Below, in pieces: positions 40,108-60,116 of a DNA stretch of 64,000 bases (position 1 is the stretch's first letter; every line of letters starts with the position of its first letter). The notes below the pieces were generated by a model, which saw only the letters and a program-made list of their open reading frames with translations, was not told the origin of the DNA and ran no database searches. Made by a program: the position numbers and the translations under genes. The DNA is from an uncultured Sphingomonas sp. GTDB lineage: Bacteria > Pseudomonadota > Alphaproteobacteria > Sphingomonadales > Sphingomonadaceae. The stretch is taken from assembly GCF_913776045.1 (NCBI RefSeq), contig NZ_CAJYOI010000006.1; one strand, written 5' to 3'.

Positions 40108-40194
40108 GCCCAGATGGCGGAATTGGTAGACGCACCAGCTTCAGGTGCTGGCGCTCGCAAGGGCGTGGAGGTTCGAGTCCTCTTCTGGGCACCA
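40108..40194 (+). tRNA. tRNA-Leu (anticodon CAG)
   Basis: 87-nt cloverleaf, CCAGC-TTCAGGT-GCTGG anticodon arm, long variable arm, GTTCGA, CCA. Confidence 0.97.
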
Positions 40195-40796: not shown

Positions 40797-40873
<77 letters not shown>

Positions 40874-46648: not shown

Positions 46649-46735
46649 TGGTGCGGTCGAGAAGACTCGAACTTCCACGGGCTTTCGCCCACAACGACCT
46701 CAACGTTGCGCGTCTACCAATTCCGCCACGACCGC
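46649..46735 (-). tRNA. tRNA-Leu (anticodon GAG)
   Basis: 87 nt, CAACG-TTGAGGT-CGTTG anticodon arm, long variable arm, CCA. Confidence 0.97.
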
Positions 46736-46897: not shown

Positions 46898-47161
46898 ATG
46901 ACTGCTCATTCCGCCATTCCTCTGCCGATCGACCTTGCCGCCCTGCCGCGCCATGCGCTGGCGACGGTGGCTGCGATCGATTGGGCGCAGCTGAGCGATG
47001 GGGAAGCGCGGCGCCTGCGCGAGTTCGGGCTGGATGAAGGCGTCGAGATCGAGCTGCTGCACGGCGCGACGCTGGGCGGCGGGCCGCTCGCCTGCCGGAT
47101 CGGGCGAATGACCATCACCTTCCGCAGCCATATCGCCCGGGCGATTCGCGTCACCTACTGA
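46898..47161 (+). CDS. feoA: Ferrous iron transport protein A
   Basis: RRLREFGLDEGVEIE..GGPLACRIGRMTITFR. Confidence 0.9.
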   Translation: MTAHSAIPLPIDLAALPRHALATVAAIDWAQLSDGEARRLREFGLDEGVEIELLHGATLGGGPLACRIGRMTITFRSHIARAIRVTY

Positions 47162-49017
47162 TGAGCGATCTTCCGCTGGTCGCGCTGGTCGGCAACCCCA
47201 ACGCCGGCAAATCCGCGCTGTTCAACGCGCTGACCGGCGCGCGGCAGAAGGTCGGCAATTATCCCGGCGTCACGGTCGAACGTCACACCGGTCGCCTGTC
47301 GCTGAACGACGGCCGCCCGGTCGAACTGGTCGACCTGCCCGGCACCTACAGCCTCGACCCCTCCAGCCCCGACGAGGAAGTGACGCGCGACGTCGTCTAC
47401 GGCCGCCAGGCGGGCGAGCGGCGGCCCGACGCGATCGTCGTCGTGGCGGACGCGACCAATCTCGATAACCACCTGCGCTTCGTCCTGCAGCTGAAGCAGC
47501 TCGGGCTGCCGATGGTGCTGGCGCTCAACATGGTCGACATGGCGGCGCGCGACGGCCTCACGATCGATGCCGCCGCACTGGCCGGCGAACTCGGCCTGCC
47601 GGTCGTCGAGACGGTGGCGGTGCGCAAGCGCGGACTCGATCCGCTGCGCGATGCATTGGGTGAGGCACTGCGCACGCGGGCAGTGCCGCAGGTTGCGGTC
47701 GATTCGATCGATGCCGACATCCGCCATTTCCAGCGCGAGGCGCGCCGCATCGCGCGCGGGGCGAGTACGGAAACGTCGCGGTCGCGCGGCGTCACCCGCT
47801 CGCTCGACCGGTTCGCACTGCATCCGGTGCTCGGCCCCGTCATCCTGCTCGCGCTGCTGTTCGTCATGTTCCAAGCTGTGTTCAGCTGGTCCGAAGCGCC
47901 GATCGCCTGGATCGAGGGCGCGCAAGCATGGCTTGGCGACACCGCCACCGCGTTGCTGCCGGCAGGGTTCTTCCGTGACTTGCTGGTCCAGGGCATCATC
48001 GGCGGTGTCGGGTCGGTCGTCGTCTTCCTGCCCCAGATCGTCATCCTGTTCCTGTTCATCTTGATGCTGGAGGCTTCGGGCTACATGGTCCGGGCCGCCA
48101 TGCTGATGGACCGGCTGATGGCCGGCGTCGGGCTGTCGGGGCGTGCGTTCATTCCGCTGCTGTCGAGCTTCGCCTGCGCGATCCCCGGTATCATGGCGAC
48201 GCGGTCGATCAGCGACCCGCGCGAGCGGCTGACGACGATCCTGGTCGCGCCGCTGATGACCTGTTCGGCGCGGCTGCCGGTCTATGCGGTGATCATCGGC
48301 GCCTTCATTCCGGCGCGGCAGGTTCTGCCGGGCGTCGGCCTGCAGGGTCTGGTGCTGCTGGCGCTGTACCTTGCCGGCATCGTCAGCGCGATGCTGGCCG
48401 CAGTGCTGATCCGCCGCACTGCGACCAGGGGCGTCGGCGGAGGCTTCCTGCTGGAAATGCCGCGCTATCAATGGCCGAACCTGCGCGACGTCGCGATTGG
48501 TCTCGCCCAGCGCGCATGGGTCTTTCTGCGCCGGGCCGGCACGATGATCATGGGCGTGACGATCGCGCTATGGCTGCTCGCGAGCTACCCGGTCGCGCCT
48601 GAGGGCGTGAAGCAGAGCGAATATTCGGTCGCCGGCCGCATCGCGAGCGTGCTGGAGGTCGGCTTGAGGCCCATCGGCTTCAACCACGAGATGAGCCTGG
48701 CCGTCATCCCGGCGATGGCCGCGCGCGAAGTCGCGGTGTCGGCGCTGCAGACCGTCTATGCGATCGACGCGGCGGACGAGGATCAGGGCGCGCAGGAACT
48801 GGGCACGCGGCTCGCGGGCCGCTGGAGTCTGGCGACCGCGCTCGCCTTCCTCGCCTGGTTCGTCTTCGCGCCGCAATGCCTGTCGACGATCGCGGTGGTC
48901 CGGCGCGAAACCAACGGCTGGAAATGGCCGGCGTTCATGATCGCCTATCTGTTCGCGCTCGCCTATGTCGCCGCGGGCGCGACCTACTGGATCGCCGTCT
49001 GGGCGGGGCTGGGCTAA
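47161..49017 (+). CDS. feoB: Ferrous iron transport protein B
   Basis: GNPNAGKS, NYPGVT, DLPG, NMVD, PLMTCSARLP. Confidence 0.96.
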   Translation: MSDLPLVALVGNPNAGKSALFNALTGARQKVGNYPGVTVERHTGRLSLNDGRPVELVDLPGTYSLDPSSPDEEVTRDVVYGRQAGERRPDAIVVVADATNLDNHLRFVLQLKQLGLPMVLALNMVDMAARDGLTIDAAALAGELGLPVVETVAVRKRGLDPLRDALGEALRTRAVPQVAVDSIDADIRHFQREARRIARGASTETSRSRGVTRSLDRFALHPVLGPVILLALLFVMFQAVFSWSEAPIAWIEGAQAWLGDTATALLPAGFFRDLLVQGIIGGVGSVVVFLPQIVILFLFILMLEASGYMVRAAMLMDRLMAGVGLSGRAFIPLLSSFACAIPGIMATRSISDPRERLTTILVAPLMTCSARLPVYAVIIGAFIPARQVLPGVGLQGLVLLALYLAGIVSAMLAAVLIRRTATRGVGGGFLLEMPRYQWPNLRDVAIGLAQRAWVFLRRAGTMIMGVTIALWLLASYPVAPEGVKQSEYSVAGRIASVLEVGLRPIGFNHEMSLAVIPAMAAREVAVSALQTVYAIDAADEDQGAQELGTRLAGRWSLATALAFLAWFVFAPQCLSTIAVVRRETNGWKWPAFMIAYLFALAYVAAGATYWIAVWAGLG

Positions 49018-49193
49018 TCGTCCTCGCGTTTCGCCCCGTCGAGCAGGTCGGCGCGGCGTTTCGCCTCCAGTGCTTCGGCGTCCTTCTGTGCCTTCGTCCG
49101 CCCGAACTTGACGCGGTTGGCGTCGGCTTCGGCTGACTTGGTGGCCTTGGCTTTCGCCTTGCGGGCGCGATTCAGGGATATGATTTCGGCCAT
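49014..49193 (-). CDS. DUF4169 family small protein (below ORF-track cutoff)
   Basis: 59 aa [16 protein letters not shown]...[15 protein letters not shown], manually translated. Confidence 0.8.
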
Positions 49194-49237: not shown

Positions 49238-49801
49238 ATGGCGGGCAGCGTCAACAAGGTGATTCTGGTGGGCAATCTGGGGCGCGACCCGGAAAGCCGC
49301 AGCTTCCAGAACGGCGGCAAAGTGGTCGAACTGCGCATCGCCACCTCGGAAAGCTGGAAGGACCGCAACTCGGGCGAGCGCAAGGAAAAGACCGAGTGGC
49401 ACACGGTGAAGGTCTTCAACGAAGGTCTGGCCAACGTCGCCGAACGCTATCTGCGCAAGGGCAGCAAGGTCTATATCGAAGGCGCGCTGACGACCCGCAA
49501 GTGGCAGGACCAGCAGGGCAACGACCGCTATTCGACCGAAATCACGCTGCAGGGCTTCAATTCGGTCCTGACGATGCTCGACGGCGCGCCCGGCCAAGGC
49601 GGCGGCGGTGGCGGCTACGGCGGCGGCCAGCGCGATTCGGGTGGCGGCAGCGATTGGGGCAGCGGCGACGACTTCGCCGGCAATTCGTCGCGCGGCGGCG
49701 GTAATTTCAACTCGGGCGCACAGAAGAGCTCGGGCGCTGGCCGTGGTAACGACTTCGGTGGCGGCTATGGCGACGATCTGGATGATGACGTTCCGTTCTG
49801 A
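49238..49801 (+). CDS. ssb: Single-stranded DNA-binding protein
   Basis: [25 protein letters not shown], Gly-rich linker, DDDVPF tail. Confidence 0.98.
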
Positions 49802-49804
49802 GAA

Positions 49805-50106
49805 GTGCGGCAGCGCGCACGCTGCGCGCTGACTCGCACGAGCACGGCCGGCGAACGAAGTTCGGCCGACGGCGTGGGCTTTGCCCACGCCTTTTTTACG
49901 CCGTGCGGCGGCGCGCACGCTGCGCGCCGACTCGCACAAGATCGGCCGGCGGGTGTAACCCGGCCGACGGCGTGGGCTTTGCCCACGCCTTTTTTTATCC
50001 GGCGCTTGGGCAGAATCAGGGCGACGGCAAAGCCGCCGACGTCGGCCGGGCTATGCCCGCCGGCCGTGCTGGCGCGAGTCTGCCGGCGGCACGCCGGCTG
50101 CCGCGC
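49805..50106. repeat. Three copies of an 87-nt three-hairpin element (two tandem on +, one inverted)
   Basis: Units 49805-49891(+), 49903-49989(+), 50020-50106(-); + units end in GGCGTGGGC-TTT-GCCCACGCC-T6/T7. Confidence 0.85.
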
Positions 50107-50689
50107 TGCGCAGCAAAAACACTGCATGCTCCGCCCGAAAATTCGCCGCCGCCGCACTGGTCGCCACACCGCGATTCAAAAACCACGCCCCCTCCACCAC
50201 GATCCCCCGCGTGTCCACGAACGCCCGGAAGTCGTCGATCGTCACATGGTGAATATTCGGCGTCTCATACCACTCCAGCGGCAGCAGCTTCGTCACCGGC
50301 ATCCGCCCGCCCCACAAAAGCGACGCGCGCACCCGCCAGTGCGCGAAGTTGGGGAACGACACGAAGGCCCGCGTGCCGATCCGCAGCAACTGCTCCAGCA
50401 CGACATGCGGCCGCATCGTCGTCTGCAACGTCTGGCTGAGGATCGCGTAATCGAACGCCGCATCGGGGTAATCGGCCAGATCGGTGTTGGCATCGCCCTG
50501 CATCACCGACAGCCCACGCTCCAATGCGGTGGCGACGTCATCGGCGTTGAGTTCCAGTCCCCGCGCATCGCAGCCGCGTTCGTCGCGCAGTGCCGCCATC
50601 AGGGCACCGTCCCCGCAGCCGACGTCTAGGATGCGCGAGCCGGCTGCAACGTTCGCCGCGATGATCGCGAGGTCGGGACGCAGGTTCAT
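50051..50689 (-). CDS. metW: Methionine biosynthesis protein MetW
   Basis: [40 protein letters not shown]. Confidence 0.93.
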
Positions 50690-51795
50690 GCCGCCGCTCC
50701 CAGGAAGCCCGCGATAACCCGGTCTAGCGCCGAATTCTCCAGCAGGAAGGCGTCGTGCCCGAACGGCGACGACAGCTCGACGAAGCTTGCCGGTGCGCCC
50801 GCTGCGTTCAGCGCGTGGACGATGCTGCGCGATTCTGCGGTCGGGTACAGCCAGTCGGTGTCGAAGCTGACGACACAGAACCGCGCTTTCGCGTGCCGGA
50901 ACGCGCTGGCCAGATGCCCGCCATGTTCCTCGGCAAGATCGAAATAATCGAGCGCGCGGGTAATGTAGAGGTAGCTGTTGGCGTCGAACCGGTCGGTGAA
51001 CGACAGACCCTGGTGACGCAGATAGCTTTCGACCTGGAAATCGGCGTCGAAGCCGAACGTCTTAGCGGTGCGGTCCTGCAGCGAGCGGCCGAATTTGGCG
51101 GTCAGCCCCGCCTCGGACAGATAGGTGATGTGCGCCGCCATCCGCGCGACGGCCAGGCCCGCGGTGGGCGGGGCGCCGTCGTAATAGGCGCCGTTTGCCC
51201 AATTCGGATCGGCCATGATCGCCTGGCGGCCGACTTCGTGGAACGCGATGTTCTGCGCCGAATGCCGCGCGGCGCTCGCCAGCACGACGCAAGCGCGCAG
51301 CCGGTCTGGGAAGGTCGCCGCCCAGCTCAACGCCTGCATGCCCCCCATCGACCCGCCGACGACGGCGGCCAGCGTACGGATGCCGAGATGGTCGACCAGC
51401 AACCCTTGCGCGCGCACCATGTCGCGGATGGTGATGACCGGGAAACTCATGCCGTAGGGCCGCCCGGTCGCCGGGTCGATGCTCGCCGGGCCGGAGGAGC
51501 CGAGACAGCTGCCGATGACGTTCGAGCAGATGACGAACCAGCGGTCGGTGTCGATCGGCTTGCCCGGCCCCACCATGCGGACCCACCAGCCGGGCTTGCC
51601 GGTGCGCGGATGGGCCGAGGCAAGATGCTGGTCGCCGGTCAGCGCATGGCAGACCAGGATGGCGTTCGACGCATCGGCGTTCAGCGTGCCGTAGGTTTCG
51701 TACGCGACCTCGACCGACGCGAGGCTCCCGCCGCTGTCGAGCGCGAGCGTGCCGAGTGCGGCTTTGCGGTCGAGGCCATAGCGGGGGTCGGTCAT
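50686..51795 (-). CDS. metX: Homoserine O-acetyltransferase
   Basis: [33 protein letters not shown]. Confidence 0.96.
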
Positions 51796-59456: not shown

Positions 59457-60116
59457 TCACACCGCCGGGTAACGCAGCCGACCGATGAACCGGCTGAGGC
59501 TAGGCACGCGGTCGCGATTGCCCAGCATTCCGGCCTTCACCTTCTCGACCTGCATGATGTTCTCGATCCGCCGGGCCAGGAACGCGCGGGTATCGGCGAA
59601 CTCCTCGCTCTCGTCGTCCAGGAACACCGCGATCGTCGCGGCATAGACCGCGCCGAGCATAGCGCGCTTGGTGTAGTGGTTGTAATCGGTCGCGGTATCG
59701 CCCGCCGCGCGCCACATGACGTCGGCCGATCGCCAGCCGAGCTTGGCCGCGCGCAAGGCATTTTGCGGCAGGGCCAGGATCGCGAGCGCGCGGCGCAGCG
59801 CTTCGCGGTTCGGGGCGGCGATCTCAAGCCGGGTTTCGACGAGTGTGGTGATGCGCTGGCGGATCTTCATCGCCGCCAGCGTGGCCGCCGGCAGGCGCGC
59901 GTGCATCTCGGCATCGATGTGCGCGAACCACGCGTCGATCATGTCGACCGGCCCGCCGGGAAAGGCGAGGCGGGCGACATCGGCGTCGATCCCCAGCGCC
60001 ACGGCCGCCGCATCGACCGCGCGGGTGTTCCAGCCGTCGAACGCGGCATTGGCCGCCACTTCGGGCGCCAGGGCGGAGCGGATTTCGTCGAGCGTCGCGT
60101 CTTCGTAAGCCATCAC
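59457..60116 (-). CDS. COQ9 family ubiquinone biosynthesis protein
   Basis: AFDGWN, MKIRQRI, DVMWRAAGDTATDYNHYTKRAML. Confidence 0.9.
   Translation of the reverse strand: MMAYEDATLDEIRSALAPEVAANAAFDGWNTRAVDAAAVALGIDADVARLAFPGGPVDMIDAWFAHIDAEMHARLPAATLAAMKIRQRITTLVETRLEIAAPNREALRRALAILALPQNALRAAKLGWRSADVMWRAAGDTATDYNHYTKRAMLGAVYAATIAVFLDDESEEFADTRAFLARRIENIMQVEKVKAGMLGNRDRVPSLSRFIGRLRYPAV

Follow-up and report, generated by a model that had tools for sequence, protein, structure and literature searches.

Integron attC sites lie directly after a stop codon or overlap it, in a fixed orientation, and conserve their structure, with extrahelical bases and a variable terminal part. Correia, ERIC and RUP repeats are dispersed, structured and co-transcribed, carry terminal inverted repeats and occur as near-identical copies within each genome; to our knowledge, no member of these three families or of the rickettsial RPE keeps a fixed register with a stop codon. 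REPs, too, lie at gene ends. Di Nocera et al. (PMC3733652) place GTAG and CGTC REPs mostly less than 20 bp away from ORF 3′ ends; the neighbouring genes are mostly unidirectional or convergent, and tail-to-tail pairs occur. According to the same source, a TAG stop codon often comes from the GTAG terminus, some REPs enter reading frames, S. wittichii is among the carriers of CGTC REPs, and rickettsial RPE sometimes extend reading frames (PMC3733652). Ribosomes are reported to stall at REPs that lie within 15 nt of a stop codon (PMC12306157). Here we describe a large family of structured elements of 90-150 nt in the Sphingomonadales that is real and strongly constrained, REP-like in habit and distinct in architecture, and whose register with the upstream stop codon is tighter than the one reported for REPs.

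The element came to light in a 64,000-nt stretch of DNA from an uncultured Sphingomonas sp. (assembly GCF_913776045.1, contig NZ_CAJYOI010000006.1), hereafter the window, in which ssb on the plus strand and a metW-metX operon on the minus strand converge on a 300-nt stretch occupied by three units (Table 1). A first-pass annotation had described these as three 87-nt units, two in tandem on the plus strand and one inverted, and the arrangement is borne out by the sequence, by a repeat finder and by TRF (period 98, 1.9 copies, 87% matches). A direct count on the layout of that annotation reproduces its comparison of copies 1 and 2, which differ at 12 of 87 positions, eight of these changes being compensatory and four unpaired, with zero pairs broken. 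Copy 3 is of equal length and has the two mismatches ascribed to it, an A-A and a T-C, among 22 differences of which 14 are compensatory, and the GACTCG sequence and the GGC bulge do recur in all three copies. That the array follows ssb directly is likewise correct, whereas its extent had been drawn too short: the element starts before 49805, the outer helix P0 of copy 1 taking in T49799 and G49800 of the ssb stop codon. Copies 1 and 2 are much more stably folded than shuffled sequences (z scores of -5.0 and -5.8), which is not the case for copy 3 taken alone (-0.85). Both plus-strand copies end in GGCGTGGGC-TTT-GCCCACGCC followed by T6 or T7, and a terminator scan detected them. The core GACTCGCRCNAGNNCGGCCGGCG is present within the window at these three sites only, and a covariance model of the family (below) found no copy in the window beyond the three units. 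Copy 1 itself is absent from the list of covariance-model matches, probably because it shares one base with copy 2 and the lower-scoring of two overlapping matches was dropped. A match at 59696-59802 (-) with a CAAGCTCGGCTGGCG...CCGACG look (19.7 bits, E 0.07) lies inside a 219-aa frame (59457-60116) and was taken as chance. As to the surroundings, we take the gene upstream of metW to be metX-like from its translation; just upstream of ssb are genes that we likewise assume, on reading their translations, to be FeoA/FeoB-like (46898-49017), together with a 59-aa reverse-strand ORF (49014-49193).

Table 1. Features of the ssb/metW locus, in positions of the window
Feature	Position	Strand	Details
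ssb CDS	49238..49801	+	ORF list; Pfam SSB, E 3e-36; TGA stop 49799-49801 overlaps first helix of copy 1
Element copy 1	49799..49897	+	Core 49805-49891; terminator-like site
Copy 1, P0	T49799 and G49800 with C49843 and A49844
Copy 1, P1	49805-49809 with 49835-49839
Copy 1, H1	49811-49831		GACTC at 49831-49835
Copy 1, P2/H2	49845-49868		H3 at 49871-49891; T6 at 49892-49897
Element copy 2	49897..49996	+	Core 49903-49989; T7 at 49990-49996; covariance-model match, 87.6 bits
Spacer between tail-to-tail copies 2 and 3	49997..50013
Element copy 3	50014..50112	-	Core 50020-50106; covariance-model match, 82.5 bits; overlaps metW frame
Copy 3, P0	50112-50110 with 50067-50069		Intact; copy without T-run
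metW-like CDS	50051..50689	-	Last 19 codons and TAG stop (50051-50053, in H2 loop of copy 3) element-encoded
metX-like gene (homoserine O-acetyltransferase)	50686..51795	-	ORF list; upstream of metW, same operon

The consensus fold obtained with RNAalifold from 37 copies, with which the covariance model agrees, consists of an outer helix (P0), two hairpin-bearing helices (P1/H1 and P2/H2) and a 3′ hairpin (H3). P0 comprises 3 bp, its first bases often being the last bases of the upstream stop codon, and is followed by a conserved internal loop in which GYA stands opposite (A/C)A. P1 is a helix with two bulged bases, usually within GACTC, and closes the variable hairpin H1. P2 is nearly invariant (CGGCCGGCG ... 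CCGACG); it contains a 2x1 internal loop and a bulge and closes H2, the length of which ranges from 10 to more than 50 nt, while H3 is a hairpin with a UUU (TTT) loop. Across 111 copies, 96.9% of the cells pair, a value somewhat inflated by the fitting of the alignments to the covariance model, compared with 80.2% after shuffling and at most 39.4% with the partners slid; double changes occur in 25 of the 31 pairs, and none of 500 shuffles reaches the observed values. In another 43 copies, found only by their 3′ half and aligned to the same model, 96.2% of the cells pair against 71.4% in the control, and the 5′ helices, which were not used in finding these copies, covary throughout, including all five P1 pairs (with variants such as GCGCG/CGCGC, GTCGG/CCGAC, GTTCG/CGAAC and GGCTG/CAGCC). 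The slid controls and this independent set indicate that the covariation signal is real despite the model-fitted alignments, and the proposal that the structure is under selection, made from three units, now extends to both sets. A different part of the first-pass annotation, the idea of a conserved CcrM GANTC site, had to be dropped, since copies whose detection did not depend on GACTC have GACAG, GAGAC or ATCTC in its place.

How far the family extends was gauged by two motif scans and the covariance model. Scanning one genome per species with the core motif yielded at least 120 loci; among those listed, all are from Sphingomonadales except seven chance matches, and several genomes gave more than one element locus. 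The covariance model, built from 37 short copies, identified 111 copies at E <1e-4 within the listed loci, about 25 of them without the exact core. A second genome scan with the 3′-half motif only (CGGCCGGCGGG...CCCGNCCGACG) added Allosphingosinicella, Sandaracinobacter, Sphingomicrobium, Stakelama and S. paucimobilis, along with chance matches in actinomycetes. Together, the two scans and the model give more than 150 copies beyond the locus, almost all of them in Sphingomonadales, with Sphingomonas, Sandarakinorhabdus, Polymorphobacter, Glacieibacterium, Allosphingosinicella and others as carriers. The number of copies per genome looks to be in the tens at most: 267 kb of unbiased Sphingomonas DNA contained none, and the flanks of the element loci, about 0.7 Mb in all, contained about 10 further copies that are unlinked. 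Copies from the same genome have the core in common and differ in all their stem sequences, and orthologous copies are retained across species (at polA in six, at EipA in seven); this combination points to long retention under constraint. The plasmid collection contained no match to the element.

The family is apparently undescribed so far. Rfam 15, a comparison that had also been proposed, gave chance matches only, at permissive and at curated thresholds, and no family reached its gathering threshold at the locus or in 17 related loci. The best sub-threshold match, to MIR8670, a plant microRNA precursor, at 49945-50065 (39 bits against a threshold of 150), was rejected as an artefact: the inverted copies 2 and 3 could fold together into one long hairpin. 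ARAGORN detected no tRNA or tmRNA between 49000 and 51000, and three tRNA genes elsewhere in the window (40108-40191 on the plus strand, 40800-40873 and 46652-46735 on the minus strand) are its sole Rfam matches. We found no description of the Sphingomonas element in the searchable literature either, in keeping with the initial impression of a system without a named family.

The most telling property of the family, which the first-pass annotation had missed, is its fixed register with the upstream stop codon. A local codon-periodicity test of the flanks of the 111 copies placed a co-oriented coding sequence upstream of 80 and one of opposite orientation upstream of 6; for the other 25 the flank was too short or gave no clear result. 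Of the 80 co-oriented copies, 73 have a stop codon that ends between -8 and +6 nt from model position 1, and the same register is seen in 21 of 31 copies of the 3′-half set, where the misses seen are truncated alignments or frames running into the element. Under closer inspection, the stop codon even takes part in the fold: its bases pair in 27 of the 28 copies in which its last one or two bases occupy P0, the 3′ arm offering T opposite A (TGA or TAA), C opposite G (TAG), and CT opposite AG. A further 13-18 copies provide the stop codon themselves, in the form of their YAG, and this accounts for an excess of TAG: 53% of the adjoining stops are TAG, as against 21% for these loci (odds ratio 4.4, p 2e-8), and the excess is limited to the GCGYAGCGCGGC subfamily. 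The genes concerned belong to about 47 unrelated families among the listed loci and are mostly housekeeping genes. Pfam confirms DNA polymerase I (polA), Rho, EipA, isocitrate lyase, YbaB, RF1 (prfA), IF2 (infB) and ETF-QO; others, identified by reading C-termini, are presumably rpoA, rpoZ, rpsD, infA, dnaN, dksA and further genes. Adjacent elements on opposite strands are tail-to-tail between convergent genes in 13 of 13 pairs, never head-to-head, and within each pair every element abuts its own gene, which indicates that orientation follows the gene and not the replication fork.

Exceptions to this register are found in six copies without a preceding co-oriented gene. The element at L087:6470-6575 (-) and its orthologue at L115:7529-7633 have no co-oriented gene before them and lie about 200 nt upstream of a gene for an ABC-F ATPase; the former is divergent from a PepSY/response-regulator pair. 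At L301:1258-1358, L279:358-461, L294:852-957 and L206:611-738, the upstream frame enters H1 and stops in its loop or stem.

One could imagine that a stable helix at this position brakes translation termination, slowing or stalling the ribosome and thereby lowering the output of the upstream gene. The stop codon is located in P0 or 0-1 nt away from it in most copies, and the upstream genes are often abundant housekeeping genes whose dosage might need fine adjustment; a reported precedent is that of E. coli REPs located no more than 15 nt from a stop codon (PMC12306157). However, lowering the output of dozens of essential and highly used genes (rpoA, infA, infB, rpsD, prfA) seems costly, and the invariant P2 and H3, at 45-100 nt from the stop codon, would be left unexplained, which is why we regard a brake of this kind as improbable.

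The ssb/metW locus also documents how elements are gained. At empty sites of the same synteny, the stops of ssb and metW are only about 8 nt apart; ssb sites are empty in 80 cases and filled in three. Comparison of relatives shows that the locus was filled stepwise. In Sphingomonas sp. Leaf33 (L102), a single element follows ssb, and metW ends at its natural stop; the MAG SMAG_U848 (L094, about 90% identical to the window) has two copies, the additional one being inverted at metW, where the frame runs 20 codons into the element and stops at a TAA in the same H2 loop; and the window has three, with a tandem duplicate after ssb in addition. Of the other 80 ssb loci from Sphingomonas, followed as far as the stop, 79 have the ssb C-terminus of the window (...DDDVPF). 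For MetW, the Pfam model ends at residue 193 of 212 in the window, the remaining residues and the TAG stop being within copy 3, and MetW of element-free relatives has its own C-terminal end without the element-encoded tail. Gene callers would annotate this tail as protein. P1, H1 and H3 of the metW copy are unlike those of its ssb neighbour, so that this copy came from elsewhere in the genome. On the ssb side, the P0 of copy 2 is broken, and this copy retains a 3′ arm, GAT, that pairs with the ATC of TGA-TC in the SMAG_U848 and Leaf33 loci, while copy 1 has a new 3′ arm (GCA) fitting its own junction; the retained arm marks copy 2 as the older one, which copy 1 displaced from the stop codon. 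In addition, window copy 3 and the Leaf33 ssb copy have an identical H2 (GGGCATAGCCC), as do window copy 2 and the SMAG_U848 metW copy (GGGTGTAACCC), and the H3 hairpins stay on their own side. The H2 modules have seemingly been exchanged, suggesting gene conversion between inverted neighbours.

This comparison also bears on a speculation of the first-pass annotation, namely that the units are an ssDNA signal functionally tied to the neighbouring ssb. What speaks for it is adjacency in the window and in two close relatives; neither the covariance model nor a loose pattern search found a copy in the 80 other Sphingomonas ssb loci, and elsewhere the elements follow about 47 unrelated gene families. 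The link to ssb is therefore local only, and we attach practically no weight to a functional one.

Another claim concerned the 3′ end of the unit, which had been likened to a terminator. This is apt for copies 1 and 2 with their T6 and T7, but it does not describe the unit as such: a T-run of at least four follows H3 in only 12 of the 111 copies, which argues against termination as a general role. A terminator-like structure of another kind is seen in Sandarakinorhabdus-type copies, where the H2 apex consists of A5, a GC hairpin and T4-6 and resembles a nested bidirectional terminator (L010, L024, L028, L043, L061, L065, L066, L069, L101, L106 and L206:1938-2073). In the nine such copies that were counted, the downstream P2 is paired to 100% and H3 to 98%, and H3 covaries; that P2 and H3 are kept downstream of a nested terminator is odd if only the terminated RNA matters.

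The folds are compact and stable, measure about 90-150 nt, contain conserved single-stranded stretches and in some copies end in terminators, and might therefore also be taken for small regulatory RNAs, whether these come from independent genes in tandem, the original proposal, or are cut from the 3′ untranslated region. The position of the unit speaks against the former, since it starts at the stop codon and has no room for a promoter of its own, and the promoter scan found no promoter-like site. Moreover, the conserved unpaired stretches are very short, and it is the stems that vary rather than seed-like loops. Small RNAs of either origin strike us as very improbable.

That strand and register are set by the upstream frame, down to the pairing of the stop base, is most simply understood if the element is an RNA structure at the end of the message. 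We therefore favour, with a probability of roughly 0.5, a REP-like 3′-end element that acts in mRNA as a transcribed stop-codon cap, fixing or protecting the 3′ end; we do not go higher because several tests did not favour RNA. In this scheme, the element would be transcribed together with the upstream gene, as its 3′ untranslated end, and would fold in the mRNA as soon as the terminating ribosome leaves, so that the message would be capped, from the stop codon onwards, by a compact and GC-rich structure. Such a cap could fix the 3′ end of the mRNA and protect it against 3′-to-5′ decay, so that a trimmed message would keep its stop codon, and the invariant P2 would be the candidate binding site of a protein partner. 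At our locus, H3 together with U6 or U7 in copies 1 and 2 would additionally serve as the intrinsic terminator of ssb, and copy 3 closes metW and supplies its stop codon. New copies arise at other gene ends by insertion or duplication, in the manner of REPs.

A weak sign of co-transcription comes from contigs of related organisms that join the 3′ end of rho to the element, in runs whose class as RNA is a guess. At L204:4600-5700 (runs X40-X43), the depth falls from 30-550 over rho to 0-11 over the element and one or two contigs span the junction, a pattern that fits co-transcription with a sharp fall after the ORF, in a mixture of strains and with DNA carry-over as a possible source. Other observations do not favour RNA. 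Wobble pairs are rare and display no strand preference (60 G-U against 43 A-C over both sets, p 0.11), a sense-strand lean in the first set (55 against 29) being reversed in the second (5 against 14). The antisense strand folds slightly better, by 2 kcal/mol on average, and is the more stable one in 107 of 154 copies, a difference so slight that folding energy does not discriminate between the strands.

The lack of a wobble preference and the equally good folding of both strands also suit another reading, namely that of a selfish or recombination element working as folded ssDNA, whose bulges and P2 would be recognised by a HUH nuclease or a tyrosine recombinase. The position at stop codons would then be a leftover of selection or a targeting rule, and a secondary role as RNA would be compatible with it. 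Sites of ssDNA recombination such as attC and IS608 conserve structure rather than sequence and have extrahelical bases, and the element resembles them in both respects. Insertions are documented at ssb sites, with 80 empty and three filled and with a stepwise gain, the metW copy is not derived from its ssb neighbour, and the structure persists downstream of embedded terminators. Furthermore, with G(C/T)AG at the 5′ head and a palindrome behind it, the element recalls the GTAG REPs, whose TAG can act as a stop codon and which lie less than 20 bp from ORF ends (PMC3733652). Against such an element stands the absence of the gene that might be expected alongside: the search for a co-occurring HUH transposase that the first-pass annotation had called for turned up no RayT-like gene, tblastn with E. 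coli RayT giving no match at E up to 1 in 1.96 Mb of element and ssb loci around about 150 elements, and no credible match in the window (best E 3.2, outside the window). There are no near-identical copies within a genome, hence no sign of recent bursts, and the copy number is low, as the 267 kb of unbiased DNA without a copy illustrates. Above all, orientation tracks the adjacent gene even in tail-to-tail pairs and not the direction of replication, and a DNA enzyme is blind to reading frames, yet the register is exact to a few bases and P0 matches the base of the stop codon. We consider the ssDNA element a possibility to be taken seriously, though a clearly less probable one than the mRNA cap; the two may also both hold, as is thought for REPs.

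Among the three options of the first-pass annotation, a REP/BIME-like unit fits best, with dispersed copies at 3′ ends, tail-to-tail pairs and gains by insertion; the build is what differs. Like REPs, the element is GC-rich and extragenic, lies close to the 3′ ends of ORFs, occasionally overlaps reading frames and forms tail-to-tail pairs, and in about 13-18 copies a TAG at its head is used as the stop codon. However, a REP is a single palindrome of 20-40 nt, whereas the Sphingomonadales element extends over 87-150 nt with three hairpins and an outer helix. REPs conserve the stem sequence within each genome, whereas here the stems vary freely and the junctions and bulges are conserved across genera. 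REPs usually number hundreds of copies and flank a RAYT gene, in contrast to the low copy number of the element and the absence of a RAYT gene nearby in our searches. The 5′ head of the element is G(C/T)AG, mostly GCAG, set beside the GTAG of REPs, and is often absent in the 3′-half set. The CGTC REPs of Alphaproteobacteria, S. wittichii and S. chlorophenolicum included, come from the bacterial class of the element, lie near the 3′ ends of ORFs and have no known dedicated transposase, and the H3 of the element is preceded by GACG, the complement of the CGTC tag. On the other hand, their stems of 8-9 bp start with A-T pairs, have loops of 4-5 nt and end in a CCA tail, whereas H3 is all G-C with a TTT loop and no CCA, and the tag would be on the other side relative to the strand if the published tag is at the 5′ end.

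The remaining systems share some traits with the element. H3 and the T6 or T7 of window copies 1 and 2 look like an intrinsic terminator, but copy 3 and 99 of the 111 members have no such U-run, and about 70 nt of conserved structure precede H3. With integron attC sites the element shares the position at the stop codon, the fixed orientation, the conserved structure and the variable terminal part; it differs in that no GTTRRRY/RYYYAAC core is visible at its ends and in that its neighbours are core housekeeping genes in conserved synteny, without a cassette array. Correia, ERIC, RUP and RPE repeats are, like the element, dispersed, structured and sometimes frame-extending, whereas the copies of the element are not near-identical. 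In view of this profile, it is tempting to speculate that the family represents a new class of 3′-end module, in which the outer helix pairs with the stop codon and P2 is read by a dedicated factor, either an RNA-binding protein or an ssDNA enzyme; we put this forward only tentatively.

If the reading as a stop-codon-pairing module is true, an entire bacterial order would share a conserved system to which nothing described so far corresponds. An RNA-binding factor reading P2 would link translation termination to what becomes of the 3′ end of the mRNA, while an ssDNA enzyme reading P2 would have placed the element at gene ends. The covariation signal of the family is among the clearest obtainable from sequence alone, and the family offers a system for asking why structured repeats gather at stop codons, how new gene ends are reached, and whether it is the ribosome, RNases or DNA enzymes that such structures act upon. 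In practical terms, a family model would improve annotation, since gene callers extend frames into the element, as at metW, and the element would provide a defined 3′ module for expression work in sphingomonads. These bacteria are abundant on plants, in air, in soil and in fresh water, and how their messages end is almost unstudied; the family marks the 3′ ends of many of their central genes (polA, rho, ssb, prfA, rpoA, infB) across an order.
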